Below, piece after piece: positions 10,316 to 64,000 of a stretch of 64,000 nt of DNA. A model generated the notes under the pieces. The model worked only from the letters and a program-made list of their open reading frames with translations, searched no databases and was not told the origin of the DNA. The DNA comes from an uncultured Bacilli bacterium. Its GTDB lineage: Bacteria > Bacillota_I > Bacilli_A > RF39 > UBA660. Both the position numbers and the translations under genes were made by a program. The stretch lies in the NCBI GenBank assembly GCA_934101115.1, contig CAKOPW010000006.1, forward strand, positions 18,632-82,631. Reading direction: 5' to 3'. Every line of letters begins with the position of its first letter. Within the stretch, counting starts at the first letter, position 1.

Positions 10316-11308
10316 TTAATTTTCCATATAATAGGCATAATATTCATCAAAAGTAAGATTAGATTCATGAACTTTTTCAGCTAATTCTTTACCTAAATAA
10401 CGATAGTGCCAAGACTCATAATTGTACCCTGTAATGTTTTGTTTATCTTTAGGATATCTTAAGATAAAACCAAATTTATAAGAATTATTTATAAGCCATT
10501 CGTAGCTTTTAGATTCATGAAATTTTGCTTGACTTGTACACTCTTTAGAATAAATATCCAAGGCAAGTCCGGTTTGATGCTCAGAATATCCTGCTCTTGC
10601 AGCTATAGAATCGGCATATTTTGTTCCTTTATCAGCTTGATATGCTTCATATACTTCTTTTTGATGAGCAGCAGAACGATATCCGGAAATAAGTATTAAA
10701 TAAATTCCCTCTTCGTATGCGGCATTCCACATTTCAATAAAAGCATTATAGGCTTCACTTCTAATCTTTTTAGGTTCTCCATAATAATATTTTATATCAA
10801 CATTTACTAAATCTTCTGGTTCATAATCTTCACCTAAACTATAATACTTATTAGCAAGTATTCCATAACCTTTTGAAAAATCAGTTTTTAGATCAGCTTC
10901 ATAATAATTTATATTTCGATGAACATTTACTAAAGATACAATACTGTCATAATCATATCCTTCTGTGCCATGATATTTGAAAAAATCTTCATCTTTAGTT
11001 ATAACTTGATCTAAATATCCATCTAGATTTTTAAACATAAAATATTTAGCAGTTAGAAAATGAGGAACAAATTCATTATATCCTAAATCTATTACTTTCT
11101 TTTGTTCATCTTCATTTAACTTTTCAAGAATTAGTTTTGTATCATCCTCAGAATATCCAAGATTCTTAAGTGCATATTCATTAGTTTTAGTATATAAATA
11201 TTCTTGATATTTTTTTACACCAAAAACTATACCTCCTACAAGAAGTATCATAACTACAAAAAATATTTTAACACTTGTTTTAAGTCTATATACTTTCTTA
11301 GTTTCCAT
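10316..11308 (-). CDS. Membrane-anchored VanY-like D,D-carboxypeptidase (peptidase M15B)
   Basis: N-terminal TM; SGYRSAAHQ, AGYSEHQTGLALD, ESWHYRYLG zinc-ligand pattern. Confidence 0.8.
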   Translation of the reverse strand: METKKVYRLKTSVKIFFVVMILLVGGIVFGVKKYQEYLYTKTNEYALKNLGYSEDDTKLILEKLNEDEQKKVIDLGYNEFVPHFLTAKYFMFKNLDGYLDQVITKDEDFFKYHGTEGYDYDSIVSLVNVHRNINYYEADLKTDFSKGYGILANKYYSLGEDYEPEDLVNVDIKYYYGEPKKIRSEAYNAFIEMWNAAYEEGIYLILISGYRSAAHQKEVYEAYQADKGTKYADSIAARAGYSEHQTGLALDIYSKECTSQAKFHESKSYEWLINNSYKFGFILRYPKDKQNITGYNYESWHYRYLGKELAEKVHESNLTFDEYYAYYMEN

Positions 11309-19174: not shown

Positions 19175-20416
19175 TTATGCTAATTTTCTAGCTTCTATTT
19201 CAGCTGTTAAGCGTTCCTTTTCGTCTTCTGTTAATATAATTTGTTTATCAAGCTCTTCTAACATTTTTTCATAATCACTTAAATCTAAATCCGGATTATT
19301 ATCTAGTTCATGAAGCAATGCTTTAAAATCATTTTCTTCTTGTAAGGATCTATCAAGTACTTCATTTTCTTTTTCAATGTACATAGTTGCTGCATTCTCA
19401 TACTCATCAATTTTATCACTTTTTTTATCAAACTCTTCATCAGTAACTTCATCTGTTAAAGTTCTATCTTGTTTATATAAATCAAACTTTATGTCCTCTA
19501 TGCTTCTATTTTGTATTCTTTCATCACGAATTTTTTGCATATATTCAGAGATTCTTGCTTCATATATTGAAGGAAGTACCTTACTCTCTAACTCAGGTTC
19601 ATCCTCCTTAAGTCTTTTTATGGCTTCTGCGCGTATATTAATATAATCAGCATTTTCAACTAAAGTTTCATCATCACTTTTTTCAAACACTACTTTTTCA
19701 GCTGATATATTTTCATCTTTTAGTTCTTCTGGAGTTTTTTCCTCTTCTTTTTGTTCTTCTTTTTCTAAAGCAGCTATTTCATTTTGAAGAGCTTCAATTC
19801 TCGCAAAATTTGGATTACTTTGAACTTTTAAATCTTGTAATTCTCTTTTTTTAGAATCTAGAATACTTTCTTTATTCTTATCGTTTTCATTTGTTTCCTT
19901 TTTAGCGTTAATACGAGCATTTTCTACTGCCTCTTTGATTTCCTTATAATCAGTTTTAGCAAGACTTTCGTTTACTATTTTTACTTGAGTCTCATACTTT
20001 TCAATATATTCATCTAATTTGTTTAAAGTTTTTGGATAAGATGATTTAATTACTGAAGTAAACTCCGGATTTTGAGAGATTAAATCTTTTACTCTTTTGA
20101 ATTCATTTAGCTTTTGATCAAGTTCATTTTTTTGATCAACCATTTCCTTACTAGGTATTTCAAATGGTACTATGATTGTTGCTCCAAAAATATCTTGAGA
20201 TTCTTTTAATCCATCTATCACGCCCATTTTCTTATAATGATTATAATCAAAGATTAAAGAATCATATTCATAAGTTATTTTTATTTTATCCGTATTCTTT
20301 TTAGTTAAATTTTCTACACTTTGAAGATTATTTATTCCGGTAAAATAAGAGATAATTCCTTTATTAATCGTTGGATCAAATACTTTAGATGTTCTTAATG
20401 CTTGTATTGCTTGGTG
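19175..20416 (-). pseudogene. 3' portion of an acidic coiled-coil protein gene whose reading frame stays open 63 codons upstream of the first ATG, up to the ICE junction
   Basis: Frame translated by hand: HQAIQALRTSKVFDPTINKG...YNHYKKMGVIDGL; no start codon or SD upstream; stop at 20417-20419 lies inside the recombinase 3' end. Confidence 0.5.
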
Positions 20417-22529: not shown

Positions 22530-24539
22530 TTATTTATTCTTTTCCTTTCTTAATTCTTGTTCTTGGTTGAATGTGCTTTTTAAATGAATCTCAATAACAT
22601 TTTTGCCATTATCATTATTACTTATTTCAATATGATATACTTTATTATCCAATTGTCCTTTTATTAAAGATTTTTCCATTTCGCCAATGTTTTTATTCAA
22701 ACTAATAACAGAAAATGTTCTATTGTTTTTAGTCTTATATTCAAAATTAATAATGTTATCTTTTATAATATCTTTAACCTGTTCTATTGCCCTTAAAAGT
22801 TCTTGTTCTTCGGCTTCTCTTTGTTCCTTATAAAAATCTTTAGCACTCATATTTAATTCATCATCTACTTTTTTAAATCTTCCACCTATTGGTGATTTTA
22901 TTTGTTCAACCGTGAAATATGTATCATCAAGTTGTTTTAATGAATTAGCTTTTCTTTCAATTTCACCTTTTTTATAACAAGAAAACTTATTATACATAAC
23001 AGTATCTCTAAAAATAGGATAACCTATTATAGGAAATATTATAGTTTTATAATGAAGTTGTTTTACTTCATCTGGTGTAAGTAAATCTCTTGCCATTAAA
23101 GAAGTTGATTTATTACCATTATAGTCTAATAAGCTAAGTGATTGACTTATAGAACTACTTGATATTGTTGTCTTACCTAACCTTTTAGATATTTGTTCTG
23201 CTGTATCTTGTGTATTTGTTTTTAAATAAATAAGACCACAGTTATCAAGTATTATTTGAGCTACCTCTTTACCATACACATTATCAAGTTGGGAGAATGA
23301 TTGAATAAAGAAATGGAATCTCATTCCTCTACTTCTTGCAACTGATACTAATGCTTCAATATCTGCAAGTGGTGGACAATTTGCAAACTCATCAAGTAAC
23401 CAATCAATTTGTACTGGTAACTTTTTATTTTCTTTACTATTAGCAAGTTTTACTAACTCCTTATATAATAGTCCTACAATAATTGTAACTAATGTAAAAT
23501 ACACTTTATCTTCATCAGGGACTATTATAAATAATGCTGTTGCTTCTCTACCTAACAAATCAAAATCAAAGTCAGAATCAGATGTTACATTTGCTACATT
23601 AACATCATCAAATAAAGACATCTTTTCACCAAACACTGCTGTAATAGATTTATAAGTATTATCACTTGCATTAAGTATTGATGTTAAAGAATCCTTACTT
23701 TTACTTCCGTAATCTTTCCTATCAATATAAGTCTTAAACTTATTAAAGTTTTTCTCTTGCATTGAACTATTTTGAAACTTGCGGATAGATGTCATAGTAA
23801 TCTGATTTCTTTTTATATTATTTTTCTTATATTCTTCTAAAAAGAATCCTATTAAACCTTCTAATAAATTTCTTGCACTATTATTCCAAAATGGATCTTT
23901 TTGCTGAGTTTTCTCTTGCATTATCATCGTAGCAAGTGAAGTTATTAATCTATTAGTTTCAGCAAGGGAAGTCATTGCTAAATTATTATATTTAACTTTA
24001 TCTTTTTTACTTACAATAGATTTTTTTTCGTATTCAATGTACCTCTCATATTCTTTTATTATTGGTTCCAATATATTAAAATGATTAGACATTTCTGGAT
24101 GTCTAAAATCAAGTGTTAATACATTATATCCATTGTCCTTAAACATTTTTGAAGTTGTATTAAATATTTCACCTTTTGGATCAGTTATAAAAACACTCCT
24201 TTTATTCTTTGCAGTAGCAATAAATGAACACATAGGAATAACAGCAGTAACTGATTTACCACTACCAGTTGAACCAAGATAAGTGTAGTGTGGTGTTTCT
24301 CTATCAAACCAAACATATTTAAAATCTTTACTAAACCATATAGGTACACCAGATTCTTTAATATTATTAATTTTTTCTTTTTTAAAGTTTTTCTTAATTT
24401 CATTATAGGTTGAGAATCTTGCTGAGCCATATTCATTATTATTTTTTACTTTATGTTTTGATATAGCTGGCTCTATAAACATAAATCCTACTATAAACAA
24501 AAGTAAAAGAGCTAACACAATGGTTAGCTCTAAAGACAT
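22530..24539 (-). CDS. Type IV coupling protein (VirD4/TraG/TcpA-like)
   Basis: 669 aa; N-terminal TM; Walker A GSTGSGKSVTAVIPM; Walker B-like DWLLDEFAN. Confidence 0.8.
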   Translation of the reverse strand: MSLELTIVLALLLLFIVGFMFIEPAISKHKVKNNNEYGSARFSTYNEIKKNFKKEKINNIKESGVPIWFSKDFKYVWFDRETPHYTYLGSTGSGKSVTAVIPMCSFIATAKNKRSVFITDPKGEIFNTTSKMFKDNGYNVLTLDFRHPEMSNHFNILEPIIKEYERYIEYEKKSIVSKKDKVKYNNLAMTSLAETNRLITSLATMIMQEKTQQKDPFWNNSARNLLEGLIGFFLEEYKKNNIKRNQITMTSIRKFQNSSMQEKNFNKFKTYIDRKDYGSKSKDSLTSILNASDNTYKSITAVFGEKMSLFDDVNVANVTSDSDFDFDLLGREATALFIIVPDEDKVYFTLVTIIVGLLYKELVKLANSKENKKLPVQIDWLLDEFANCPPLADIEALVSVARSRGMRFHFFIQSFSQLDNVYGKEVAQIILDNCGLIYLKTNTQDTAEQISKRLGKTTISSSSISQSLSLLDYNGNKSTSLMARDLLTPDEVKQLHYKTIIFPIIGYPIFRDTVMYNKFSCYKKGEIERKANSLKQLDDTYFTVEQIKSPIGGRFKKVDDELNMSAKDFYKEQREAEEQELLRAIEQVKDIIKDNIINFEYKTKNNRTFSVISLNKNIGEMEKSLIKGQLDNKVYHIEISNNDNGKNVIEIHLKSTFNQEQELRKEKNK

Positions 24540-27052: not shown

Positions 27053-27230
27053 CTCTAGTACATTTACTAGATACTTTTATTGCACAAAATAAAAAAAGTG
27101 ATAGTCCACAAACTAACACTATAAATATAATAAAAATTAACCATTTCCAAAATGGCATTTTAATCACCTCTTTCCTTCAAAATAAAAAGACTAGTTATAT
27201 TTCAAACTAATCTCACTGATAAATTGTAAT

Positions 27231-35356: not shown

Positions 35357-35530
35357 TTTTTATCATTCCTCCTTTAAAATATAAAATTAATCCAAGTTCA
35401 ATTAATTTTATAACCATTTTATTTATGCTTATTCCTTCTTGTTTAGCAAGTAGTCTTATTTGATCCTTTAAGTCTTTCAAACATCTTATAAATATAGTTA
35501 CAATTATTTAAACCACCTCTTTCTTCCATA

Positions 35531-35558
35531 AAAAAATTAGTTATATTTCAAACTAATT
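35531..35558 (-). terminator. Intrinsic terminator after the SWIM-protein gene (its 20-nt core is repeated at 27192-27211)
   Basis: Stem attagtt / aactaat plus U7 on the minus strand. Confidence 0.6.
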
Positions 35559-35567
35559 TTCACACAT

Positions 35568-50281: not shown

Positions 50282-51394
50282 CTAAATATTTTTAATTGCA
50301 TTTTCTAGTAAATTAATAAGCCTTTTAATGTCATCTCTTTCTAGTGATACATTAAAATATTCTGTGGACCTATCAAAATGAAATTCTATTTCAACTAATT
50401 CATAGCAAGATCTATCTTTCCAAAATACAAACTGAACGGCTGAATCTAAGAAATCCATTTTTTCAAATGATTCTTTTTTATCTTTTTTAGAATGAAAACA
50501 TTTTTTAAATCTATCTAATAATTTATTAAATTCATTTTTTGTCATTATAAAATTATCTATTTTTGCAGAAAATGAAGGATTTTGAACACCAAATTCAATT
50601 GTGTATTTATCATCCTCTTTATTTAAAATATTAAATAATATTGAACTACCATTCTCTCCTACAAAATAATTATCCCATTGATTAAAAGTAAATCTTGTAT
50701 TCCAATTTAAATTATAATAGTCTGCTAGGCACCATTCCACCTGTAAAGCATAAAAATCATATTTATCTTCTTTTATATCACTCATAGATATAAAACAATT
50801 GAAGATATTATTTTTTCTTAAATATACTATTTTAGTAAATATTTTTTCTATCTCAAAAATGTCCTTATCATTATCAAAAACAAATTTAGATAACTCTTTA
50901 TTTAACATTTTGGTATATATATTATCTTCATATAACTTAGAAAATAACAATACATTATTATAAAAATTATAAAGATACATTCTAATAAAACCTGCTGTAT
51001 ATTTTGCAATATTATTATATTGATTTTTACCGCTGTGAACATTATCTTTGCATAATAATATGTTCACATATTTATTAGATAAACTTTCTTCAATAGTTAA
51101 TAATTGTTCCGTACTATTAAAATAAAAATTATCTTTAATATAAGTAATGTATCTATCTACATTTTCAAGGAATCTTTCTTCTAAAGTAATTGTATCTCTT
51201 CCAAATACTAATTTACTAGCATCAATATTACCCTTCTTAATTTTTTCTACTAATGAGTGCATCTCTTTTATACTTAGCAATTTACATAAATCACTACCAT
51301 TTGAATACACATCACTTACTGCGTACTTCTTCATTCTTTTTGTTTGTTCCGTATCTGGAACAATCCACTCTTTTTCCATGTAATTCTCCTTCAT
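50282..51394 (-). CDS. Hypothetical protein (370 aa), divergent from the XRE regulator
   Basis: Long ORF; no motif recognised. Confidence 0.5.
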   Translation of the reverse strand: MKENYMEKEWIVPDTEQTKRMKKYAVSDVYSNGSDLCKLLSIKEMHSLVEKIKKGNIDASKLVFGRDTITLEERFLENVDRYITYIKDNFYFNSTEQLLTIEESLSNKYVNILLCKDNVHSGKNQYNNIAKYTAGFIRMYLYNFYNNVLLFSKLYEDNIYTKMLNKELSKFVFDNDKDIFEIEKIFTKIVYLRKNNIFNCFISMSDIKEDKYDFYALQVEWCLADYYNLNWNTRFTFNQWDNYFVGENGSSILFNILNKEDDKYTIEFGVQNPSFSAKIDNFIMTKNEFNKLLDRFKKCFHSKKDKKESFEKMDFLDSAVQFVFWKDRSCYELVEIEFHFDRSTEYFNVSLERDDIKRLINLLENAIKNI

Positions 51395-51508
51395 TAAAAC
51401 TAATTGATTTTGTACTGCTGTTTCTATTATAACACATTTTTAGTCTATTTCCCCAAGAAATATGAATATACCCCAATTAAATGGGAAAATTATATTAGGT
51501 GATTAAAT

Positions 51509-51946
51509 GTGAAGGTAAAAAGACTTAGGGAAACTAGAGAAAATTTAGATTTAAAACAGATTGATTTAACTGATTTATTTGGTGTTACATATTCAACTAT
51601 TTCAGGATGGGAAACAGGAAAAGATACAATACCTTTAAAGCAATTAATTAAATATGCAAATAAATATAATTATAGTTTGGATTATCTATTAGGGCTAACA
51701 GATAAAAATATTGAATATAAAGACCTTAAAATAAATCTTAATTCTTTGGCAACTAATTTGAGAAAAAAGAGAAAACAATATGGTAAAACTCAACAACAGA
51801 TTGCCGATATTATTAATACAAGTCAATCAAGTTATGCTCATTATGAAAATGCTAGATATTTAATGCCATTAAACTTTTTATACAATCTTAGTAAGATATA
51901 TAATGATTTATCAATAGATGAAATGTTGGGAAGAAAAAAGAAGTAG
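51509..51946 (+). CDS. Tandem-HTH XRE-family regulator (two HTH_3-like domains), GTG start
   Basis: LRETRENLDLKQIDLTDLFGVTYSTISGWETGK and LRKKRKQYGKTQQQIADIINTSQSSYAHYENAR; AGGTGA SD. Confidence 0.75.
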   Translation: MKVKRLRETRENLDLKQIDLTDLFGVTYSTISGWETGKDTIPLKQLIKYANKYNYSLDYLLGLTDKNIEYKDLKINLNSLATNLRKKRKQYGKTQQQIADIINTSQSSYAHYENARYLMPLNFLYNLSKIYNDLSIDEMLGRKKK

Positions 51947-51967
51947 ATTATTAAATACTACTTCTTT

Positions 51968-53263
51968 TTATTCGCTTATTAATTTTCCAATATCATTACA
52001 TAATGGTAGTAATTGTTCTATTTTATTTACAATTATTTGTTGATCTTCTATAGATGGATACTTTAACTCAATATTTTTAATTTTATTAATACTTACTCCG
52101 CCGATTATTCCGCTTAAATTACTATTAAAGTTTTTTAGAAAAATAGGAGATTGTAAATAATAATACAAAAATTTAGGAAGAATATTTGGATTTGTAGAGA
52201 ATCTACATAACTTATTACCATAACACACTGTTTCATTTAAAATACCAATCTTTTTTCCAGCACTTCCACCTTCAATACAAATCAAAATATCGTTTTCTCT
52301 TGCATATTTAAATCCTTTTTCATCGAAAGGAATTTTTATACCATTATCATAATTAAAAGTATGATTAAATTCTAAATCCTTTGTAGCAATATAGTTATAT
52401 CCATCTTTAATATTTGTATATTTAGATTTTTTTATGGATTCAGAAATACTATTACCAGTTACAATATCTTTACAACAATCAATAAGTTTATTACTATTCC
52501 ACACGGAAGTATTTTGATTTGTCAACTTACCAGTGTAAGCATCATTCAAGATACTGGTAATCATATCATTTGGAAAGCTATCTTTCAAAAATTTAAGTTC
52601 TTCTTCAATTGGTTTTATTTCGTTTAGTTTAGCAAATATTTCTTCTATTTTATCTACTATTCTCTGCTGTTCTTCTAATGGTGGCAGAGGGATTATATAT
52701 TCACCAATTTTATCTGTAGATGTATGAACTATAATATTTCCTTTTGCAGTTTTGGATTTTTGTTTTATTAAAAATTGACTAAACATGCAATATACAATAT
52801 ACATAGGATTTTGATTATGCTCTGTTAAAGAACACATATCACCTCCCATTACTAATCCTTTATTTCCAAGATAAGCAGTTGCTTTTGCAATATCGTATTC
52901 ATTTTCACCAGTCAAAGTAAAAAGAACATCTCCATAATTAACACTTTTATATTTTTTTGAATTAGTTTCTTCTATAAATGATATAGTTTCTTTGAAAGAG
53001 TAAGAATATGATGTATATATTTCTCCATATCTAATACATGGAAATCCTTCATTTACTGTTTCTGTTCTTTTAATGCCATTTCCTCTGACTAATTTTCCTA
53101 CATATTTCAATTTTGTCCAAATCCAGTTTTTAGGTATTTCAAACAAATTGTCAGCATTATCTATTTCTTTTACTCCCTTGACAGATTCGTTCTTATTCTG
53201 AATGCTTAATTTACCACATATTGCATAATTTAAAATACTTTTTTTGAAATCTTCAACAATCAT
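51968..53263 (-). CDS. hsdS: Type I R-M specificity subunit HsdS
   Basis: 431 aa; two TRDs separated by conserved LPPLEEQQRIVDKIEEIF and YPSIEDQQIIVNKIEQL helices. Confidence 0.85.
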   Translation of the reverse strand: MIVEDFKKSILNYAICGKLSIQNKNESVKGVKEIDNADNLFEIPKNWIWTKLKYVGKLVRGNGIKRTETVNEGFPCIRYGEIYTSYSYSFKETISFIEETNSKKYKSVNYGDVLFTLTGENEYDIAKATAYLGNKGLVMGGDMCSLTEHNQNPMYIVYCMFSQFLIKQKSKTAKGNIIVHTSTDKIGEYIIPLPPLEEQQRIVDKIEEIFAKLNEIKPIEEELKFLKDSFPNDMITSILNDAYTGKLTNQNTSVWNSNKLIDCCKDIVTGNSISESIKKSKYTNIKDGYNYIATKDLEFNHTFNYDNGIKIPFDEKGFKYARENDILICIEGGSAGKKIGILNETVCYGNKLCRFSTNPNILPKFLYYYLQSPIFLKNFNSNLSGIIGGVSINKIKNIELKYPSIEDQQIIVNKIEQLLPLCNDIGKLISE

Positions 53264-54747
53264 TTTAAATCACCTATTATTTTAATGATACCCTCAAGTT
53301 TTTCATCTAATTGTTTTTCTAGAGTTTCTCTTCTAGTTATAAAGTTATCTATTGTTTCCCTTGGTGATAGTATAATTTCTTCCTTTTTTGGATAACCACA
53401 TTGATCTAGATTATAATTTAGATTAGATAATTCTTCTATTGTAAATTTCTTTGATTTATAAGTTTCGGTTAATGATTCATCATCCTTTAAATCTTTAATC
53501 TCAGTTCTGTTATACCACCAATCAATAATAGATTGCAAATGTTTTAATTCCACAGGTTTCGTTTTACTAAATGCTTTATATCCTTCTGGTAAATCCATTC
53601 TATAAAACCATGTTTCTTGTGTTGGGCCTGTTTTATCAAAAAACAATAAGTTTGTTGCAATACTTGTATATGGTGCAAATATTGAACCTGGTAATCTTAT
53701 AATTGTATGCAAATTACATTCTTCCATTAACTTCTTTTTTATTGCGACTTTAGTATTATCATTTCCAAATAAAAATCCATCTGGTAATACTATACCAACC
53801 TTACCATTTTGTTTTAATCTATAAAGTATTTCTACCATGAACAAATCAGCCGTTTCAGAATCTCTTAAATCAGTTGGAAAATTTTGTTGTACAGATTTTT
53901 TTTCAGTACCACCATAAGGAGGATTCATTAAGATAATATCAAATTTATCCTCTTCTTCATAATCTCTTACATTCTTTTCAAGAGAATTGCCTCTTATAAT
54001 ATTAGGCTCATTAACATCATGTAAAAGCATATTGGTTGTACATAATAAATATGGTAAAGATTTCTTTTCAACTCCGTAAAATGATTTTTTTAATATCTCA
54101 TTAGATTCTGTATCATTTGCTTGTTCTTTCATATGATTAAGTGCTGAAACAAGGAATCCACCAGTACCACAAGCAAAGTCTGCTACTGTCTGTCCAATTT
54201 TAGGATCAACCATTTTAACAATAAAGTCAGTTACTGCTCTTGGAGTATAAAATTCTCCAGATTTACCAGCCGATTGTAGATCTTTTAATATTGTTTCGTA
54301 TATTTCATTAAACGCATGTCTTGTTTGAAAGTCTGTTAAATCAATTTCGTTTAAGACATTAACCACCTGTCTAATTAATACGCCATCCTTCATATAGTTA
54401 TTTAAATCTTCAAAAACTTCTCTAACTATTCTTCCCCTTATTGGAGTTGTTTCATTAATTTCAAGATTTTTTAAAGTATCAAATAATTGAATAATAAAGT
54501 TAGAAAGTTCATCACCTGTCATTGCCTTTCCATCTTTATTATCTATTGCCCAATTTCTCCATCTATATTCCTCTGGGATGATTGATTTATAATTATCTTC
54601 TAAAATTTCCCATTCACTTTCTTTAGCATCATACAATTTTAAGAACAGCATCCAAACAATTTGTTCTATTCTTTGGGCATCACCATTAACACCTGCATCT
54701 TGCCTCATAATATCTTGTAATCTTTTTATCATTGTTCCTATATTCAT
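53260..54747 (-). CDS. hsdM: Type I R-M N6-adenine methyltransferase HsdM
   Basis: DFACGTGGFL (motif I), LMNPPYGG (motif IV), N-terminal HsdM_N-like region. Confidence 0.9.
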   Translation of the reverse strand: MNIGTMIKRLQDIMRQDAGVNGDAQRIEQIVWMLFLKLYDAKESEWEILEDNYKSIIPEEYRWRNWAIDNKDGKAMTGDELSNFIIQLFDTLKNLEINETTPIRGRIVREVFEDLNNYMKDGVLIRQVVNVLNEIDLTDFQTRHAFNEIYETILKDLQSAGKSGEFYTPRAVTDFIVKMVDPKIGQTVADFACGTGGFLVSALNHMKEQANDTESNEILKKSFYGVEKKSLPYLLCTTNMLLHDVNEPNIIRGNSLEKNVRDYEEEDKFDIILMNPPYGGTEKKSVQQNFPTDLRDSETADLFMVEILYRLKQNGKVGIVLPDGFLFGNDNTKVAIKKKLMEECNLHTIIRLPGSIFAPYTSIATNLLFFDKTGPTQETWFYRMDLPEGYKAFSKTKPVELKHLQSIIDWWYNRTEIKDLKDDESLTETYKSKKFTIEELSNLNYNLDQCGYPKKEEIILSPRETIDNFITRRETLEKQLDEKLEGIIKIIGDLK

Positions 54748-54758
54748 TTTTTCACTCC

Positions 54759-57089
54759 CTAACTATACAATAAATTTTCTAATTTTGAAATCATACCTAA
54801 GTATTTATCTTTTCCACCAAATAAATTAATGATAGGAACAAGACCTCCAAATTTATTAAAATTTTTAATTTCCAGTAATTTAATATTTTCAAGTTCTATA
54901 ATATTTTTACTTTTATACACTTTTAAAAGTTCATCAATTACATTTTTTTGTTTATCGTTATATTCATTTAAAATAGAACTTTCTTCTACCTTTTCAATTC
55001 TATCTTCTTTTGTTAATGCTTTTTCATCATAAGCCATGTTTGAAAGTATATCAAATATATCAATATTATTATCATTTACTTTATTAAATACAGCATCAAC
55101 CATTACTCCTTCACTCATTAAATGTTCTAGAAACTCTTTTTTAGAATCAGCCCTAAACCATTCTTGCTCAAAACCATCATGATTTTCGTATAATCTTTTA
55201 AGATTTTTCTTAGAATATTCCATTATGGATTCTGTTATTAGTTTTCCATCTGCATCATAGTATTTTATTGTTTCATTTAATATTGAAACATCAACGCCCT
55301 TAATGTAAATTTTTTTAAATCCTTCTTGATCCACTGCTCCATTAATTGGTAGTTCAGGTTTAATGTTATCAATTCCATATTCTTTTGGAGATTTTACATC
55401 ATCTAAATCACCACCATCAATATTAATAATTGATTCTGCAGGTCCATTAAATGCTGGATCAGCAAACTTTTCAGAATTATTTCTAAAATCCATAATTGTA
55501 AAGAATTCTTTTCCTTTATTTAGAAGTAATCTTGTACCTCTACCAATTATTTGTTTGAATTCAGTCATACTTTGTATTTCTTCATCTAATACAATTAATT
55601 TTACAGTTTTAGTATCAACCCCAGTTGATAATAATTTTGATGTTGTTGCAATAACTGGATATGTTGTATTTGAATCAATAAAATCATCCAATTTAGTTTT
55701 CCCATAGTCATCGTTACTAGTAATTCTTACAACATAACTTGGATTCACTTTCATCATATCAGAATTTTCATTTGCTAAAGCATCTCTCATTCTAAGTGCA
55801 TGTTCAGTATCTACGCAAAATACAATTGTTCTCGCATATCTATCAGTTGCTTTTAAATATTCTGTAATTCTTTTTGCTACTACTTTTGTTCTCTCATCAA
55901 TAACAATTTTTCTATCAAAATCATGTACTGTATATTCTTTATCCTCCACCTCATATCCATCTTCATCAAGTTTACCTTTTTCTGGTCTATAACCCTCCAA
56001 ATCTTTGTCAAGCCCAACTTTAATAACTTTATATGGTGCAAGGAATCCATCTTCTATTCCATCTTTTAATGAATAAGTATAAATAGGTTCTCCAAAATAA
56101 GCAATATTTGAAATATCATTGGTTTCTTTAGGCGTTGCAGTCATACCAATTTGTGTAGCAGAACTAAAATAATTAAGTATTTCATGCCAGTTTGAATCAT
56201 CTCTTGCACTACTTCTATGACACTCATCAACAATTATTAAATCAAAGAAATCAGGTTTAAATTGTTTATATACTTCTTTTTCATTACTTCTAAGTTGATG
56301 ATATAGTGACATATATATTTCATAAGATGAATCCATTTTTCTGTTTTCAATTTTAGTCATTACTTTTTGAAAAGGTTTAAAATCGTTTTGCATTGTTTGA
56401 TCAATCAAAATATTTCTATCAGCCAAATACAAAATCTTCTTTTTTGCTCCAGAACTATATAATCTGTGGATTATTTGAAATGCTGTAAATGTTTTTCCAG
56501 TTCCAGTTGCCATTACAAGCAGTATTCTTTTTTGCCCTTTGGCGATAGCTTCAACCGTTTTATTAATAGCAATTCTCTGATAATACCTAGGAGTTTTAAA
56601 TGCACTCATATAATAATAAGGTTGTGTGATTATTTTTGTTTCCTCTTCTGTTAAGTTTTTTTCTGCTTTATATCTATTCCACAACTCTTCTGGTGTTGGA
56701 AATTCATCTAATTTGATTTCTCTCTCTTTTCCAGTAATTCTATCATGTTCATAAAATCCAGACCCATTTGATGAATACGCAAAAGGAATATCTAAATCTA
56801 CAGCATATCCAATTGCTTGTTGAATTCCATGAGATACTGTAACTTTATTATCTTTTGCTTCAACAATTGCAATTGGCATATTTGACCTGTAAGATAACAG
56901 ATAGTCAACTTTTTTGCCTTTGCCCCTACTGGCAACATTTTCTCTAACATTTATTTTACCATCTGTATAATAATACTCACATCTAATTTGAGATTGTATA
57001 TCCCATTCTGATTTTTGTAACGATGGAGTTATAAATCTTAATTTAATATCTTCTTCTGTCAAATCTTTAATACTTAATTCATTATTCAT
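54759..57089 (-). CDS. hsdR: Type I R-M restriction subunit HsdR
   Basis: 776 aa; N-terminal nuclease region (VDYLL..AIVEAK), helicase motifs MATGTGKTFTAF, IIVDECHRS, MTATP. Confidence 0.85.
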   Translation of the reverse strand: MNNELSIKDLTEEDIKLRFITPSLQKSEWDIQSQIRCEYYYTDGKINVRENVASRGKGKKVDYLLSYRSNMPIAIVEAKDNKVTVSHGIQQAIGYAVDLDIPFAYSSNGSGFYEHDRITGKEREIKLDEFPTPEELWNRYKAEKNLTEEETKIITQPYYYMSAFKTPRYYQRIAINKTVEAIAKGQKRILLVMATGTGKTFTAFQIIHRLYSSGAKKKILYLADRNILIDQTMQNDFKPFQKVMTKIENRKMDSSYEIYMSLYHQLRSNEKEVYKQFKPDFFDLIIVDECHRSSARDDSNWHEILNYFSSATQIGMTATPKETNDISNIAYFGEPIYTYSLKDGIEDGFLAPYKVIKVGLDKDLEGYRPEKGKLDEDGYEVEDKEYTVHDFDRKIVIDERTKVVAKRITEYLKATDRYARTIVFCVDTEHALRMRDALANENSDMMKVNPSYVVRITSNDDYGKTKLDDFIDSNTTYPVIATTSKLLSTGVDTKTVKLIVLDEEIQSMTEFKQIIGRGTRLLLNKGKEFFTIMDFRNNSEKFADPAFNGPAESIINIDGGDLDDVKSPKEYGIDNIKPELPINGAVDQEGFKKIYIKGVDVSILNETIKYYDADGKLITESIMEYSKKNLKRLYENHDGFEQEWFRADSKKEFLEHLMSEGVMVDAVFNKVNDNNIDIFDILSNMAYDEKALTKEDRIEKVEESSILNEYNDKQKNVIDELLKVYKSKNIIELENIKLLEIKNFNKFGGLVPIINLFGGKDKYLGMISKLENLLYS

Positions 57090-57141
57090 AATCTACACTT
57101 ACTCCTTTTTTATAGAGATAATTCAAAAATTATACATATAT

Positions 57142-57175
57142 TATAATTATACCATAAAAAGTGTAAATTTACATT
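57142..57175 (-). promoter_or_regulatory. 34-nt promoter/operator module, copy 1 (upstream of hsdR): extended -10 TGGTATAAT plus 12-bp palindrome TGTAAATTTACA
   Basis: Identical to 61708-61741; TATAATTATACCATAAAAAGTGTAAATTTACATT on the plus strand. Confidence 0.6.
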
Positions 57176-57226
57176 GATATAGATTAAAAAAAGAGTAAAG
57201 AAATATAAAATTACAAAAAAAAGACA

Positions 57227-58420
57227 TCAAATCTTTATTTTGCGTCTTTCACCCCATTTGTTTATGGAATCTACTAACTTATTTAACATTTCTTGATTAA
57301 TTTTTATATTTAAATAATTCATATATATAATCCTTAAACATAAAATCAATTTAAATTGAGCATAATTGTTTTCTAGTTGTTCAAAAACCTTTTTGCTTTC
57401 ATTCATATTAAAATGTGATAAATAATGTCTATGTTCTTTTGCTTTTAATAAAAATATAGAAGTATTATGAGAGTCATTTGCATTTTTTAAATCTTTTTTA
57501 TTTAATATTTGTTTTATAGTATTATCTTTCAAAAAATAATATTCTAATATTTGCCATAATTCTTTTTTATTATCATTATTTAAGGTTATATATGTACCCT
57601 CAATCAATTGAACGAGTAAACTATTATTCATTTCCATATAACCAATACCATTTTGACTTGTCATAAATACATCGTACAAAATATATGTATCTTTTCTAAA
57701 TTTTATAAACCTTTTTATTAAGTCAGCAGTAAGGACTTCTGAACTAATTACAGACAATGCACTATCATTTGAACCAGATTTTAAATTTTGAAAATACTTA
57801 TCAGCTATTTTTTGATACAAAATAATCTCATCATCACCAACATAAAATATATATTTTTCTATTTTAGGAATACTTCCAAATATTAGATAAACAATCTCAA
57901 GAACTCTATAAAGAACATCATCTAATTTTTCTCTCTTTGTTTTTGTTTTAGATTCAATACGAAACAACAAGATAGTTTTGTCATTACTATTATCTATTTT
58001 TTTATCTATGTAAATATTTTTCTGTGAGGTGTATTTAATCTTAAATTTATTTATGTAGCAACCATAATGATAACTTTTAGGATATGAAGTTTCAAATATT
58101 ATTTTATCTGTTAAAATATTGTCTTTTTCACCAATATAGTTTTCAAAAATATAATTAATGCTGACATTTTTAAAAGATACACAGGAATTTGTTTTATATC
58201 CGAGCAAACATTCTAAGCAAGAATAATTTTTACCATTTTCATCAATCAAATATAAATTCATTGCAGGTAACGGAAATAGCAATGGACGATTAAAAATAGC
58301 AAAATAGTCTTCAAATGATAAGTCAAATTGAAAAGACAAGTTTTCTAAATCTAGAAATCCATTAATACTAAAATAGTCTTTCTTATTTACACTAATCTTA
58401 TTTATTTTTACTAATTCCAT
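57227..58420 (-). CDS. Hypothetical protein with a C-terminal HEPN-like R-x4-H motif (ApeA/Abi-like?)
   Basis: 397 aa; KAKEHRHYLSHFN contains R-H-Y-L-S-H (R[NHQD]xxxH) in a predicted helical C-terminal third; 24 nt after the GmrSD-like gene. Confidence 0.4.
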   Translation of the reverse strand: MELVKINKISVNKKDYFSINGFLDLENLSFQFDLSFEDYFAIFNRPLLFPLPAMNLYLIDENGKNYSCLECLLGYKTNSCVSFKNVSINYIFENYIGEKDNILTDKIIFETSYPKSYHYGCYINKFKIKYTSQKNIYIDKKIDNSNDKTILLFRIESKTKTKREKLDDVLYRVLEIVYLIFGSIPKIEKYIFYVGDDEIILYQKIADKYFQNLKSGSNDSALSVISSEVLTADLIKRFIKFRKDTYILYDVFMTSQNGIGYMEMNNSLLVQLIEGTYITLNNDNKKELWQILEYYFLKDNTIKQILNKKDLKNANDSHNTSIFLLKAKEHRHYLSHFNMNESKKVFEQLENNYAQFKLILCLRIIYMNYLNIKINQEMLNKLVDSINKWGERRKIKI

Positions 58421-58444
58421 ACCTACCGTTTACTCCCTCACATT

Positions 58445-60925
58445 TTATTTTAAATTTTTTTCATAACTTTGTTTTAATATATTTTTAACATATTCAATAT
58501 CAGAATCTTGATTAACAATTATATATCTATCGTGAGTCCACTGATAACTTTCAGCAAGTTCTCCTACCATTTCCTTTGGATCATTGTAATCTCCAGTCAT
58601 AAGAACATATTTTAAACTATTCTTCTGAAACCATAATTCAATAAAATTTTTTCCATAATAATATGATAAATAAACTGATGTAGTATTTTTCTTTATATCA
58701 CTATTCAATGACATTACATAATTATCTAATTCATTATAAATATTCATAATTTCAGTATTTGTGTTTTTTGATATTTTGTTAAATTGATTTTCATCAAATA
58801 TTACTTCTCTTAATGATGAACTTTCAATTTCTTTATTTTCAGGAATAGTAACATCAATTTCATTATCCTCATCTTTTATCATAAAATCTAATCCAAGCAT
58901 TTTGATTCTTTCTGCTTTATTAGGAATAATAAAATCATATCTTTTTTCCATAAAAGAAATCATTGTCAAGCCACGATTTAGAATCTCATCTGGTGTCCAT
59001 TCTAAACATTTAGCAACTTGCATTTCAGAATGAGAACCATTTTCATATCCTCTAGTTCTATCCAATCCATGTTTTTTGTCATCAAATGAATAATTTTGTA
59101 ATTTAACATTTATACTTAACGATAATGGTAATAAATTGCCTAAAGAACCATTTAAATATTTTCTTTGAGTATCTGTATAATTACCAAATCTCTCTACCCA
59201 ATATTCATTGGTATCTGTTTGAGGATAAATATGTTCAATTGAAACTTTATCTTTTTCATCTTTTTTAAATAAATTTTCTGGATATATTTTTTGATTAGCT
59301 TGATTATTCATTAGATATAATTCATATTCATATAAGAAATAAGTTTTTGCTGGCCATGAATAATATCCCTTATAGTTTTTAAATAATCTATTAATATTAT
59401 TTAAAATAGCATTCATATTAGCAACTTTATTATCACTTAAATAATCTATTTTATCTAATTCTTCATTTACTTCATCTAAAGTAACTTCATTAATATAAAA
59501 TTTGTGTGCTAAATTCCAAAAGAAGCTGTTTTTATAAGTGGATTGATAATTAACTAATCTAAAGTGTAAAAATATAAATCTTTCTATCTTTTTTAAAGTA
59601 TTTACTTTATCAGATTCTGTAATCTCTTTTTTTGACAATAAAACTGTTATTAAAGGTTTGAAATATACAAATTGTAATCTATTTAACTTTTGAAGCATTG
59701 CTCTTACTTCACCACTTGATTCATACTCATCTGGATTTTGTACAATATACCAATATGGAATTAATGACTTCATACTATTAATATATTTGCTAATACTTCC
59801 TAAAGTTAATTTTTCTTTTTTATTTTCTGTTACAATTTCTTCTTTCGTTTCTATTTCGGATACATCTAAATTATCTATGTTTATCTCATCGTTATTTTCT
59901 TCTTGTGTTTTAATAATATATTTATCTGAAATGTTATTTTGATTAAAATAATCATTCAATAAAAACGATGCGTATGTAACTTTATTAGATCTTGTATAAC
60001 CAAAATATATAATCCAATGGTCTTGTAAAAAATCTTCATCATTTAATGCTTTTAATTTATTCTTTCCTAAATAGCCATATACATCTTTCCAAGTATTATT
60101 AATATTTTTTCTAATAGCTTTTTTATTATCTTCTTCATCTGAAAATATAGTTGATAAATATATTAATCTATTTTTTAATAACTCTAAATTAGATAATCTT
60201 TTTCCCCTATTATTCATTGTTTCAAATGCAACAAAAACATTAAAGTCATTATCTATATAATACATATTAAATTTTAGTTTTTGAGTTATCTTTCTAAATA
60301 TATCTTCAATGGAATGAATTCCGTTTTTATCATATTCTTCTTGAAGTCTATCCGAAAAGAATTTCTTGGCATTTTCTAAATTCAATGTATAAAATGTTTC
60401 ATTTAAAAGTCCAGAATTAGGTTCACCTAATATTTTATGTTTAAAGAATTCATAACTTGGATTGTCAACCTCATATCCGAACTTAAATGTTTTAATTATA
60501 TCTGCAGAATCAGGTTTTGAAATCACAAGAAAATCTTCTTCTATTTTATTAAGTGGAATACTATTAATAAAAATTTGATTCATTTCCTTATCAGGATTAA
60601 TTCTTTTATAAAATAAAACAATTTCATTTATTAATATAATAAAAGTCGTAAGCCTTTGTTGTCCATCAACAACATGATAGGCATTATAATTCCAATTATC
60701 TAAAAGCCATCTTTCATCATTCCACTTTTCATCACTTGTATATTCTCTATCTAATTTCTTCAAAGAAATCATACCTGTATAATGATCTCTGTTTGGAAGC
60801 AAATTTAAAATATCACTCCAAAATTCTTCTAATTGTAATTCTCCCCAAGAATACCCTCTTTGATAATCTGGTATTCTAAAAATTGATCTATTAAATAAAT
60901 CAGTTAATGATAATAAGTCATTCAT
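58445..60925 (-). CDS. DUF262/DUF1524 (GmrSD-family) nuclease-like protein with an extra C-terminal domain
   Basis: IPDYQRGYSW and VVDGQQRLTT (DUF262/ParB-like); SIEHIYPQ and LGNLLPLSLSINVKLQN (DUF1524 His-Me finger); the C-terminal ~130 aa are related to the 287-aa neighbour. Confidence 0.8.
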   Translation of the reverse strand: MNDLLSLTDLFNRSIFRIPDYQRGYSWGELQLEEFWSDILNLLPNRDHYTGMISLKKLDREYTSDEKWNDERWLLDNWNYNAYHVVDGQQRLTTFIILINEIVLFYKRINPDKEMNQIFINSIPLNKIEEDFLVISKPDSADIIKTFKFGYEVDNPSYEFFKHKILGEPNSGLLNETFYTLNLENAKKFFSDRLQEEYDKNGIHSIEDIFRKITQKLKFNMYYIDNDFNVFVAFETMNNRGKRLSNLELLKNRLIYLSTIFSDEEDNKKAIRKNINNTWKDVYGYLGKNKLKALNDEDFLQDHWIIYFGYTRSNKVTYASFLLNDYFNQNNISDKYIIKTQEENNDEINIDNLDVSEIETKEEIVTENKKEKLTLGSISKYINSMKSLIPYWYIVQNPDEYESSGEVRAMLQKLNRLQFVYFKPLITVLLSKKEITESDKVNTLKKIERFIFLHFRLVNYQSTYKNSFFWNLAHKFYINEVTLDEVNEELDKIDYLSDNKVANMNAILNNINRLFKNYKGYYSWPAKTYFLYEYELYLMNNQANQKIYPENLFKKDEKDKVSIEHIYPQTDTNEYWVERFGNYTDTQRKYLNGSLGNLLPLSLSINVKLQNYSFDDKKHGLDRTRGYENGSHSEMQVAKCLEWTPDEILNRGLTMISFMEKRYDFIIPNKAERIKMLGLDFMIKDEDNEIDVTIPENKEIESSSLREVIFDENQFNKISKNTNTEIMNIYNELDNYVMSLNSDIKKNTTSVYLSYYYGKNFIELWFQKNSLKYVLMTGDYNDPKEMVGELAESYQWTHDRYIIVNQDSDIEYVKNILKQSYEKNLK

Positions 60926-60942
60926 ATATTTTTCACCTCATC

Positions 60943-61683
60943 TTACATATTATCAATTAAAACATCAAGTTGTTTTCTATCTAAATTAAAATTATATATA
61001 GTATATTGTAAACATAATAATTTTTGAGTTAAGCATAATTCCGACAAATCTAAGCCTTTAACAAAGTTATTATATTTAGAAACAATGTCATTCTCCAACA
61101 AAATATTATCTTCTAAGTATTTTTTTATTTCATCAATGCTTTTATTGTTTAAATCATTTTTTATGTTTAAATTTTTAACTTGCAAATAATATTTGAGATA
61201 AATATCTTTTTGAATTGGTAACATATTATTTAAATATATTTCCACATCATTCATTTTACAAAATCCCATTAAAAGATTAATCAAAGGTTTAACTACATCT
61301 TCATGTTTATAGCCATGAACACCAGTACCAAGACTTGGAATTAAAACTTTTTTATATCCGTTTTCCTTTATGCTTAAAAGTAGGTTATTATAGCAATCCA
61401 TAAGTGAGTTAATAGGATCTGTTTCCTCATAATACTTAGGTGCTAAAACATGTATTATATCCATAGGTAAATTAAATCCAGGTGTAATTCTAACCTCACC
61501 ATTAACCATATATTCTTTATAAGTATTTTGACAATATTCTATTAATTCATTTCCTGAAGCTCTACAAATCACTCCACAAATACCACTGCCGTATTGCATA
61601 TATTTATTTTGTGCATTTACAATAGCGTCCATATTATTAGAATTTAATATAAAATCACCACATGTTAGATATAATTTTCCCAT
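60943..61683 (-). CDS. Macro-domain protein with an ~90-aa C-terminal extension
   Basis: GDFILNSNNMDAIVNAQNKYMQYGSGICGVI, RITPGFNLPMDIIHVLAP, LIPSLGTGVHGY: canonical MacroD-like motifs. Confidence 0.75.
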   Translation of the reverse strand: MGKLYLTCGDFILNSNNMDAIVNAQNKYMQYGSGICGVICRASGNELIEYCQNTYKEYMVNGEVRITPGFNLPMDIIHVLAPKYYEETDPINSLMDCYNNLLLSIKENGYKKVLIPSLGTGVHGYKHEDVVKPLINLLMGFCKMNDVEIYLNNMLPIQKDIYLKYYLQVKNLNIKNDLNNKSIDEIKKYLEDNILLENDIVSKYNNFVKGLDLSELCLTQKLLCLQYTIYNFNLDRKQLDVLIDNM

Positions 61684-61707
61684 AACTCACCTCAGGATCT
61701 TTCCAAA

Positions 61708-61741
61708 TATAATTATACCATAAAAAGTGTAAATTTACATT
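61708..61741 (-). promoter_or_regulatory. 34-nt promoter/operator module, copy 2 (upstream of the Macro operon)
   Basis: Identical to 57142-57175; -10 lies ~29 nt upstream of the Macro ATG, with a TGAGGTGAG SD between. Confidence 0.6.
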
Positions 61742-61763
61742 AGAAGCCAAAGAAAAAGCCATA

Positions 61764-62627
61764 CTACTTTTTATAGTATAGCTCATTTAATTTATTTTTA
61801 ACATCAATTGGATTTATTTTAGTTAAATCAAAACTCTTTTTGATTAAAGGCATAATAGTTTCTATGTCAGATTCTTCTTTAATTTTAAAACTTCTACATA
61901 AAGGTTCATAAGTACTACGACCTACAACAGATAAAATATTATTCTCATCTTCAACTGCTAAAATTCTTATATATAGGCAATTTGACCTCTTTTCAATTAT
62001 CAAGAAGTTTCTTGATGCAGTAAACACAATACCTTTAATCATCTTTTTCTTCTTTATACTTCTATCAATAGATTTAACATTATCCGTTAAAATTTTTGTT
62101 AAATTATTAAGATGATTTATCATAAATGGATTTGTTATCTGCTCATACTCTTTATCAATAAGATACTTGGCATAATTTAGGGAATTCTCATCCCCAACCC
62201 TCATTTTGTATTTTAAAGAACACTTTTCATATCCCTTTCTAATACTTAACTTATTTTCCTTATCAAATATCTTGACATCTTTTAGAAAACATAGAATCAT
62301 TTCTGTTTCATTTAATGTTACTTCCAAAATTCTACATCTATACTTAAAAGAAATTCCTTTAACTAAATAATTCCTAATTATCTTTCTATCTTTTTTTAGA
62401 ACATAATCTTCTAAATCATCATATAACTCTATTACCTTGGCATCTTTGTTGGTAGTTAATTTTTTATAATTACTAGTGTTAATATCATAAGAACGATTGT
62501 TTATTTTTCTACTATTCTTTACATGATTTGAAGTATAGCTCAAACATCCTTTTGGCTGTTCCAAATCAAGTTCTGGGTGGTATATATTACCATCGTGGGC
62601 AAAATCATTGGTAGTATAGACTTCCAT
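61764..62627 (-). CDS. Hypothetical protein with two copies of the module found at the C-terminus of the GmrSD-like protein (DUF5655-like as I recall)
   Basis: LYDDLEDYV..ISFKY..ILEV vs IYNELDNYV..YLSYYY..FIELW in the 826-aa protein; a second, weaker copy at aa ~175-270. Confidence 0.45.
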   Translation of the reverse strand: MEVYTTNDFAHDGNIYHPELDLEQPKGCLSYTSNHVKNSRKINNRSYDINTSNYKKLTTNKDAKVIELYDDLEDYVLKKDRKIIRNYLVKGISFKYRCRILEVTLNETEMILCFLKDVKIFDKENKLSIRKGYEKCSLKYKMRVGDENSLNYAKYLIDKEYEQITNPFMINHLNNLTKILTDNVKSIDRSIKKKKMIKGIVFTASRNFLIIEKRSNCLYIRILAVEDENNILSVVGRSTYEPLCRSFKIKEESDIETIMPLIKKSFDLTKINPIDVKNKLNELYYKK

Positions 62628-62670
62628 AATATCTAATGATTTAATACCATTTAAGGGGTAATTAAAGAAC

Positions 62671-62994
62671 TTAAAAATGTTCTTGTAGTAACACCAAGAT
62701 TGCTTCTTTTTCTAAAGACATCATGGAACTTCTAGCTTTTTTAGAATTGTTTTGACGATCTTCATATATAGCTTCTTTAAAGTCTGTAAATACCGTATCA
62801 TATTCATCAAATGCCGGAATACTTAAAAGAGAATCTATAAAACTTTTTTGAATATCTGTTTCTAGAGATTTAGATGCCACTTCTGATATTTTATTAAGAA
62901 TTTGGGAAACTTCTGATAAACTATCTCCATGATCAGATATTTTATTTTGTAATTTATTTAACAATTCTTTTAATTCATCCATAAATAATTCCAC
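62671..62994 (-). CDS. Hypothetical helical protein (107 aa)
   Basis: ORF with TAGGTGGA SD. Confidence 0.4.
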   Translation of the reverse strand: MELFMDELKELLNKLQNKISDHGDSLSEVSQILNKISEVASKSLETDIQKSFIDSLLSIPAFDEYDTVFTDFKEAIYEDRQNNSKKARSSMMSLEKEAILVLLQEHF

Positions 62995-63057
62995 CTACTA
63001 TAACTAATATACCATTATTTTATGATATTTATTAAAAAAAATTAGTTGACTTTACAA

Positions 63058-64000
63058 CTAATTTAATTCGTTTTTACTAAATCCGTTTAGTTTCCATAAA
63101 GGAGCAATCATATTTAATGATTCTAATTCTTTATATATTTCACTTAATTCATGAGCATCCACAAATATTTCGTGTTCTAAAAACATTTTCTTTAGTTCTT
63201 TCTTATTAAACACTCCAATTTGGATTGTATAGTAAATATCATCAATAAGACAACTTTCAGTTTCTAAATCATTTTGTAGTAAAGTTGCTTCTATTTCATT
63301 TTTCAAATTTATAAATTCGTTAAAATCAAGTACTTTATAATCAGTTCTTTTTGATTTTTCGTTTTTTATATAATCAAATGAATCTTGATCAAAGATTGAA
63401 TCAACTATATAATTTTCGATTACTGGAAGATGTTTATATTCAATGAATTCATTCAATTCTTCTTCAGTTAATTTAACAGCTGATTTTTCTAATAATTCTA
63501 TTAACTTTTCTTTATGTATTATTCCATTTGCTTCAATGTAATTTGTTATGGAATAAGCGATATCATGGAAATTATCTTTATATCTTTTTTCTAATTTTCT
63601 ACGAAGTTTTTTTCTTTTTTCCACAACACTTCTCAATTCGTTTGGCATAAGATATTTGTACTCATCATTTACTAAAGCGATTCCTATTTTTCCGTGAACT
63701 ATAAATTTAGGATCAAAAGTATCATAACAAACATCCTCTGATTCGATGATTTCCAAAGTGTATTCATCAATATCAGTTATCTCATTATAACTTTCAATTA
63801 TATCTTCTTTACTTATATTAAGTTCATCCAATAAATTAGTTGATTCTAAAAATCTATCAATAGTGAACTCTTCTTTACTTTTTATCTTTGCAGCATCATT
63901 TTTTAAGGCATCTAAGAAAGAATCGTTTAAATTTCTTCCTTTTAAAGCTACAAAACGAATATCTTTAACAACGTTTAAATAATAAGTTGAGATTTGTCTT
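63058..64000 (-). CDS. Hypothetical protein, 5'-partial (frame stays open to the window edge; the TTG start in the ORF track is probably not real)
   Basis: Hand translation of 63832-63999 gives RQISTYYLNVVKDIRFVALKGRNLNDSF... in the same frame with no stop. Confidence 0.5.
   Translation of the reverse strand, partial: RQISTYYLNVVKDIRFVALKGRNLNDSFLDALKNDAAKIKSKEEFTIDRFLESTNLLDELNISKEDIIESYNEITDIDEYTLEIIESEDVCYDTFDPKFIVHGKIGIALVNDEYKYLMPNELRSVVEKRKKLRRKLEKRYKDNFHDIAYSITNYIEANGIIHKEKLIELLEKSAVKLTEEELNEFIEYKHLPVIENYIVDSIFDQDSFDYIKNEKSKRTDYKVLDFNEFINLKNEIEATLLQNDLETESCLIDDIYYTIQIGVFNKKELKKMFLEHEIFVDAHELSEIYKELESLNMIAPLWKLNGFSKNELN

Follow-up and report, generated by a model that had tools for sequence, protein, structure and literature searches.

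Near-identical sequences upstream of non-homologous genes, in one genome as well as in different taxa, have been described as putative mobile promoters, and the mechanism by which they spread is unknown (Matus-Garcia, Nijveen and van Passel 2012; PMC3575422). Here we describe an element with some of these properties in a 64,000-nt stretch of DNA from an uncultured Bacilli bacterium (assembly GCA_934101115.1, contig CAKOPW010000006.1, positions 18,632 to 82,631; the whole stretch is referred to as the window, and positions are counted from its first letter), in which an exact 34-nt sequence occurs twice within an array of anti-phage gene cassettes carried by an integrative and conjugative element (ICE). 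The two copies are probably instances of a portable promoter module of about 30 bp, AATGTAAATTTACA-CTTTTTA-TGG-TATAAT, that heads every cassette of a variable ICE anti-phage array in uncultured human-gut Bacilli. Like the putative mobile promoters, the module is found before non-homologous genes at an identity of at least 80%, the threshold used for those elements; unlike them, it has a core of 30 nt (up to about 47 nt with an adjoining T-run), which is below their 50-nt criterion (PMC3575422), it is confined to one ICE cassette array, it includes the -10, and it coincides with recombination junctions.

In defence hotspots such as hotspot 5 of the SXT/R391 ICEs and the P2/P4 hotspots (PMC9122126), a fixed site between backbone genes holds varied anti-phage systems. 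The array described here is similar: it is flanked by conserved backbone genes of an integrated conjugative element (those for a recombinase and an XRE protein), and its content varies among relatives. What sets it apart is its host, from a group of uncultured gut Bacilli, and the recombinase of the ICE, which is a large serine recombinase (LSR). In the SXT/R391 or P2/P4 hotspots, a promoter module repeated at each cassette boundary is not known to us, and the literature searched did not describe any hotspot whose boundaries each carry a repeated promoter. Integrons likewise have a recombinase gene next to which exchangeable cassettes are lined up in one direction, each boundary being marked by a short conserved element. 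No IntI or attC was found here, however; the adjacent recombinases are of the serine type, the only hairpins found are those of terminators, the cassette order is nearly fixed, and the boundary element is a putative promoter, whereas integron cassettes are mostly promoterless. The autonomous promoter-gene-terminator units known as phage 'morons', which also reside in mobile elements and are often protective, differ from the units of this array in that all of the latter share one promoter. In elements of the Tn916/Tn5397 type, the cargo is convergent towards an XRE-type, orf9-like regulator that is followed by a sigma-like, orf7-like gene, and TndX of Tn5397 is a serine recombinase. The present ICE shares the convergent cargo, the XRE gene followed by a sigma-like gene (Sigma70_r4 match) and the serine recombinase; it carries a multi-cassette defence array instead of tet(M), and the rest of its gene order differs. 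By its position at the -35 region of the promoter of a restriction gene, the palindrome also recalls C-protein/C-box control of restriction-modification (R-M) genes; unlike in that control, there is no C gene in the cassettes, and the same site also precedes genes other than R-M genes.

Anatomy of the repeat

The 34-mer TATAATTATACCATAAAAAGTGTAAATTTACATT is present in two exact copies in the window (copies A and B; Table 1), with no third match there at up to three mismatches, and none of 100 dinucleotide-shuffled versions of the window contained a match, none being expected by chance. Extending the search to the whole assembly (1.54 Mb in 65 contigs, 27% G+C), as the preliminary description of this DNA had suggested, returned no copy beyond these two. 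Read on the minus strand, each copy has the layout AA-TGTAAATTTACA-CTTTTTA-TGG-TATAAT-TATA and lies between a stop codon and a start codon. Copy A is located 3' of a gene for a 287-aa DUF5655 protein and 5' of a Macro gene (ATG at 61683), with 28 nt between the -10 and the ATG and GAGGTGA ahead of the latter; copy B is located 3' of a gene for a 397-aa protein and 5' of hsdR (ATG at 57089), with 56 nt between its first -10 and the ATG, which is preceded by AAGGAG. The flanking sequences of the two copies are unrelated outside the 34 nt, and the terminal TATA is shared by coincidence, as the unit conserved across relatives comprises 28 to 30 nt. Exact matching and comparison of the flanks thus agree with the preliminary description, which had reported an identical, intergenic 34-mer with diverged flanks and a 12-bp palindrome at the -35 region of an extended -10 promoter aimed at hsdR and at the Macro operon; the palindrome covers the spacer as well. 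The preliminary description had missed the full TRTG -16 motif, a second, overlapping promoter in copy B and the role of the module as a junction across species.

The same arrangement was found in independent ENA metagenome assemblies, and Logan contigs (k=31) break exactly at the repeat. As the repeat is exact and its layout recurs in independent assemblies, it is therefore real and not an assembly artefact. More broadly, it is extremely improbable that the repeat arose by chance or by a local duplication confined to this genome, or that it is an artefact or a dispersed element resembling repetitive extragenic palindromic (REP) sequences or miniature inverted-repeat transposable elements (MITEs). 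The AT-richness of the genome is the one thing that speaks for any of these; chance, private duplication and artefact are refuted by the shuffles, by the agreement of independent assemblies and by the 39 instances found in other genomes and contigs (see below), and a REP/MITE-like dispersed repeat is ruled out by the copy number, each genome having one or two copies, all of them inside this array. The widespread REP-like repeat that the preliminary description had named as a reason to abandon its proposal was accordingly not what we observed.

Both copies contain TATGGTATAAT, a complete TRTGn-TATAAT extended -10; TRTGnTATAAT is the Gram-positive '-16 region' form of this element (Voskuil and Chambliss 1998). 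The -35 position holds ATGTAA (3/6 matches), which falls within the palindrome. In copy B only, a second TATAAT gives rise to an overlapping TTTACA-16-TATAAT arrangement with 11/12 matches. TTTACA was rejected as the -35 of the conserved -10, to which its spacing is just 10 nt, and the second -10 of copy B is not conserved across instances.

Distribution, combinations and conservation

The comparison set consisted of 8 other species genomes and 19 metagenome contigs, in which 39 module instances were scored. The genomes came from a scan of GTDB (one genome per species), which identified true homologues of the core in these 8 further genomes, labelled as uncultured Bacilli or as 'Mycoplasma sp.' or 'Clostridium sp.' gut metagenome-assembled genomes; the 19 contigs came from a metagenome scan, and every contig whose title names a source is from the human gut. 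The core was not found in viral contigs, plasmids or phages, and the 60 nearest relatives of the host gave no match to the 34-mer at up to three mismatches. The distribution of the module tracks the ICE and not host phylogeny. A looser pattern, TGTAAATTTACA-N3-8-TGNTATAAT, gave 103 matches in many Bacillota; these are mostly unrelated promoters and provide no evidence of a widespread operator, and the excess of matches with a gap of 7 arises because (T)TGTAA acts as a -35 at 17-bp spacing. A literature search for the palindromic 12-mer returned a single match, an unrelated predicted weak Rex site in Thermoanaerobacterium.

The 39 instances define an invariant 30-nt core, AATGTAAATTTACAcTTTTTaTGgTATAAT, which consists of the 12-bp palindrome and the TRTGnTATAAT extended -10. 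The -10 hexamer TATAAT is invariant throughout (39/39) and the palindrome in all instances except one (38/39); the TG of the extended -10 is kept in 37/39, the ARH modules of loci L134 and L146 (ARH, ADP-ribosylglycohydrolase) both reading TA. Every instance is followed by a same-strand open reading frame (ORF) whose start is no more than 150 nt away, and about 18 to 56 nt separate the -10 and the start codon in the flanks displayed. Clustering of the neighbouring ORFs sorted the upstream genes into 8 families and the downstream genes into 11, which occur in 16 combinations. The downstream units are Macro(-c9-c11)-GmrSD(-c4), in which c9, c11 and c4 are ORF families that may be present; tandem ARH; type I R-M, in three families; type II R-M (tandem Dam, N4/N6 methyltransferase and a 460-aa protein); type IIG R-M; type III R-M (Mod and Res); an HsdR-like fragment, recognized by eye only; and a 457-aa protein with no family match. 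In two sister loci retrieved by an exact-protein look-up (L005/L006), for example, Macro-GmrSD is followed by the module, then by a type II methyltransferase and a type IIG enzyme (T5orf172-ResIII-Eco57I), and then by the same XRE gene as in the window. Four of the proteins that follow or flank the module (397, 457, 586 and 460 aa) are without family assignment.

In pairs of instances with different downstream families, homology breaks exactly at TATAAT in 590 of the 596 pairs. On the other side, homology extends for 0 to 35 nt upstream of the palindrome, usually over the T-run and about 10 nt after a hairpin terminator. This hairpin varies in sequence and keeps a fixed distance of 16 to 18 nt; it was found in 5 of the 6 upstream contexts and is absent before copy B of the window. 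Diverged orthologous pairs linked to Macro are 83% identical in coding sequence, 79% in the 5' untranslated region (5'UTR) and 97.5% in the module, and for those linked to hsdR the corresponding values are 81%, 61% and 97%; ahead of non-homologous downstream genes (11 families), module identity is still at least 93%. The module is thus a selected functional unit, more conserved than the genes it precedes.

In two loci (L058, L137), where a 176-aa ORF comes after the module, the module and the first ~13 codons of Macro are fused to unrelated sequence, which is followed by genes that do not belong to the array; the fusion lies beside a serine recombinase of the c6 type and looks like the scar of an array deletion.

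The ICE and its cassettes

Features of the window are collected in Table 1. The array is cargo of an ICE with an LSR; the preliminary description had mentioned an ICE in passing, and its existence is supported by the att cores, an attP form, the recombinase and a coupling protein. The 7-bp crossover core AAGCAAT is present at both ends, and the ICE is therefore about 42.3 kb in length. It also carries genes for a thioester adhesin, a sortase and a sigma-like protein. In locus L130 the element is seen in its attP form, circular or unintegrated, with the ICE recombinase gene joined directly to the DUF5655 gene and the module; the junction, GTAACACCAAG-CAAT-CTTGGTGTTAC, has the appearance of a typical serine-recombinase attP. 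Here (L130, 1233-3806) the recombinase ORF meets no stop for about 40 codons and reads in frame into the DUF5655 gene, which results in an ORF of 857 aa. After integration, the recombinase stops 4 codons past the crossover, and the DUF5655 part is a separate 287-aa gene at the other end of the ICE; the recombinase may therefore change its form when the ICE integrates. The target of integration is a gene for a coiled-coil protein, of which a 107-aa ORF represents the 5' part and a 350-aa ORF, plus open upstream codons, the 3' part, and the reconstructed attB reads in frame (SLEKEAI|QALRTSKV). A second ICE lineage has a different, divergent serine recombinase (c6) directly beside the first module. 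A hairpin-like repeat of 30 nt, AAAAAAATTAGTT..AACTAATTT, was also observed in the window in copies with 83 to 100% identity to a reference copy, two of them inside the ICE and one outside it, between the genes for a 561-aa protein and the 107-aa protein.

Table 1. Features of the window (positions counted from its first letter)
Feature	Position	Strand	Details
Module copy A (34-mer)	61708..61741	-	palindrome TGTAAATTTACA 61728-61739; T-rich spacer 61721-61727; TGG 61718-61720; TATAAT 61712-61717; TGGTATAAT 61712-61720
Module copy B (34-mer)	57142..57175	-	palindrome TGTAAATTTACA 57162-57173; TGGTATAAT 57146-57154; second TATAAT 57140-57145
Intrinsic terminator hairpin and T-run, end of DUF5655 gene	61756..61784	-	12 bp, -14.1 kcal/mol, z = -4.0; 16 nt ahead of palindrome
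DUF5655 gene, 287 aa, ahead of first module	61764..62627	-	C-terminal part of the 857-aa LSR ORF in the attP form (L130)
Cassette 1	57227..61683	-	Macro 60943-61683; GmrSD-like 58445-60925; 397-aa protein 57227-58420
Cassette 2, type I R-M	51968..57089	-	hsdR with EcoEI_R_C 54759-57089; hsdM 53260-54747; hsdS 51968-53263
Tandem helix-turn-helix (HTH) XRE gene	51509..51946	+	convergent with hsdS
ICE	~20406-62705		about 42.3 kb
ICE left-end crossover core AAGCAAT	20406..20412	-	adjoins attP arm GTAACACCAAG
ICE right-end crossover core AAGCAAT	62699..62705	-	adjoins attP arm CTTGGTGTTAC
LSR gene	20395-22173		
VirD4/TraG coupling protein gene	22530-24539		
Coiled-coil protein gene (ICE target)	19175-20412, 62671-62994		interrupted by the ICE
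30-nt hairpin-like repeat	27184-27213, 35530-35559, 63035-63064		

In minus-strand order, the array reads DUF5655, module A, Macro, GmrSD-like, 397-aa protein, module B, hsdR, hsdM and hsdS; all cassette genes are on the minus strand and the XRE gene is on the plus strand. The GmrSD-like protein has DUF262/DUF1524 domains and a C-terminal DUF5655 and was scored as HEC-06/Orf5-like by PADLOC, which scored the Macro protein weakly as DarG-like; the 397-aa protein matched no family. DUF5655 thus occurs twice, as the C-terminal domain of the GmrSD-like protein and in the 287-aa protein linked to the recombinase, and both match PADLOC PDC-S18. Rfam covariance models run over 51000-63000 at E values up to 1 gave no matches. 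The XRE gene closes the array in 8/8 loci that reach that far. In the window, the stop codons of hsdS and XRE are convergent and 21 nt apart (51947-51967), and a scan detected no terminator in this gap; transcription running on past the last cassette would be antisense to XRE, an arrangement reminiscent of tet(M)/orf9 in Tn916. Elsewhere, the HsdM863 cassette of L140 and L132 has two hsdS-like genes and an ORF resembling a tyrosine recombinase (c35, recognized by eye), which suggests a phase-variable specificity shufflon within the cassette.

Proposed promoter, operator and exchange point

From the position, orientation and conservation of the module, we infer that each cassette would form its own transcription unit, consisting of the module, a short 5'UTR with a Shine-Dalgarno sequence, the genes and usually a hairpin terminator with a T-run 16 to 18 nt ahead of the next module. 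Host sigma-A RNA polymerase would start about 7 nt after TATAAT by way of the TRTGn extended -10, the -35 position offering only ATGTAA inside the 12-bp palindrome (about -34 to -23), and the palindrome would probably be bound by a dimeric regulator that switches all cassettes together. Because the same 30 bp stands at every cassette boundary, we propose that it is also the point at which cassettes were joined, lost and replaced. Sequence variants on the two sides of the module bear on this proposal. The 6 nt to the left of the AA track the upstream context, being TTCTAA in 10/10 instances after DUF5655 and TATCAA in 8/8 after ARH, whereas a T at position 13 tracks the ARH cassette downstream in 5/5 instances, under two upstream contexts. 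As the variants on the left follow the upstream cassette and those from position 13 on follow the downstream cassette, the exchange points would therefore lie within the invariant AATGTAAATTTACA.

Several observations weigh against a portable promoter module at which cassettes are exchanged. Promoter-like hexamers are at background in DNA of 27% G+C (109 found, 107 expected), and the promoter assignment therefore rests on conservation, orientation and position. Many of the instances are from related ICEs, so that the 39 do not represent 39 independent events, and the maps of neighbouring ORFs showed no regulator other than XRE that is universal among the array loci, nor was a regulator found that co-varies with the module. 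The order of the cassettes is nearly fixed (ARH, Macro-GmrSD, R-M slot, XRE), which fits loss from module to module and replacement in the R-M slot better than free shuffling. A homology of 30 to 47 bp is short for RecA-dependent exchange, and homologous recombination leaves unexplained why 11 unrelated cassettes are fused to the same nucleotide.

It is possible, if doubtful, that the conservation mainly reflects the operator of a single repressor, either the tandem-HTH XRE protein or another ICE protein, which switches Macro-GmrSD and hsdRMS together. A perfect 12-bp dyad of TGT-N6-ACA geometry over about -34 to -23 is what such a repressor might bind; we estimate from base composition that a palindrome of this kind would occur by chance in about 1-2% of AT-rich stretches of 30 nt, and its near-invariance among the instances and the XRE gene at the end of the array point the same way. 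A shared repressor acting on the module seems plausible, although the whole 30 nt is conserved and not the dyad alone. The preliminary description had put forward the tandem-HTH XRE protein as a candidate, for which we find no support: the divergent XRE-c13 promoter region has no TGTAAATTTACA-like site, the XRE protein of L135 shares just 42% identity and its intergenic region differs, while the module beside its gene is unchanged, and the adjacency is explained equally well if XRE belongs to the ICE backbone. A genome-wide search for further palindromes, also suggested there, did yield a third copy, on contig C14, 4 nt ahead of TGATATAAT and upstream of a 128-aa and then a 314-aa ORF; the copy number is nevertheless within chance expectation (about 1.2 per genome), and genomes G069 and G070 keep a site of the C14 type without the module or a tandem XRE. 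Orthologues of the C14 palindrome are about 90% identical throughout, and its conservation is therefore uninformative. The C14 region (~10890-10990 of that contig, outside the window; also in L070 and L112) has three direct repeats of ATTGTAAA, the last of which forms the palindrome, upstream of the two ORFs, and this may represent a regulator site of its own. The 128-aa protein matched no Pfam family, and the 314-aa ORF is Abi_2-like by eye only.

We regard it as unlikely, and less likely than a repressor operator, that the palindrome-centred module is first of all the site-specific recombination site of a cassette exchange of a non-integron kind, with promoter function secondary. Cassettes, each made up of 5'UTR, genes and terminator, would then be cut and pasted at AATGTAAATTTACA by a recombinase encoded by the ICE or the host, and since the site would double as promoter, an inserted cassette would be expressed at once. 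The site at every cassette boundary, the right edge that falls on exactly the same nucleotide in 11 unrelated types of cassette, the exchange points inside the invariant 14 nt and the hairpins of variable sequence at a fixed distance on the 5' side all fit such a scheme, as does the fact that the array always adjoins a recombinase gene, be it the LSR-DUF5655 ORF or the divergent LSR of the c6 type. Yet the ORF maps show no integron-type tyrosine recombinase beside the first module, the only ORF resembling a tyrosine recombinase (c35) being inside the hsdS region of L132/L140; the order of the cassettes is nearly fixed, and gene content varies within cassettes as well (c9/c11 and c4, for example). 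The LSR of the ICE was considered as the enzyme acting on the module and rejected, as its attP is unrelated to the module in sequence. Since the nucleotide-sharp fusion after the -10 is left unexplained by homologous recombination, a site-specific mechanism does keep a small share of the probability.

Should the module indeed be a portable promoter at the head of each cassette, nature would here provide a clear case of a standard part, in which a single 30-bp promoter, perhaps with an operator, is used again and again before at least 11 unrelated anti-phage cassettes of a conjugative element, and terminators insulate these cassettes from one another. Of greatest interest for further work is that unrelated cassettes are fused to one and the same -10 with single-nucleotide precision. 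The module would offer a testable model for the rebuilding of ICE defence arrays, with exchange at a junction common to the cassettes, it is a candidate for the single control point of the whole defence array, and it would serve as a simple marker for new defence genes in uncultured gut Bacilli.

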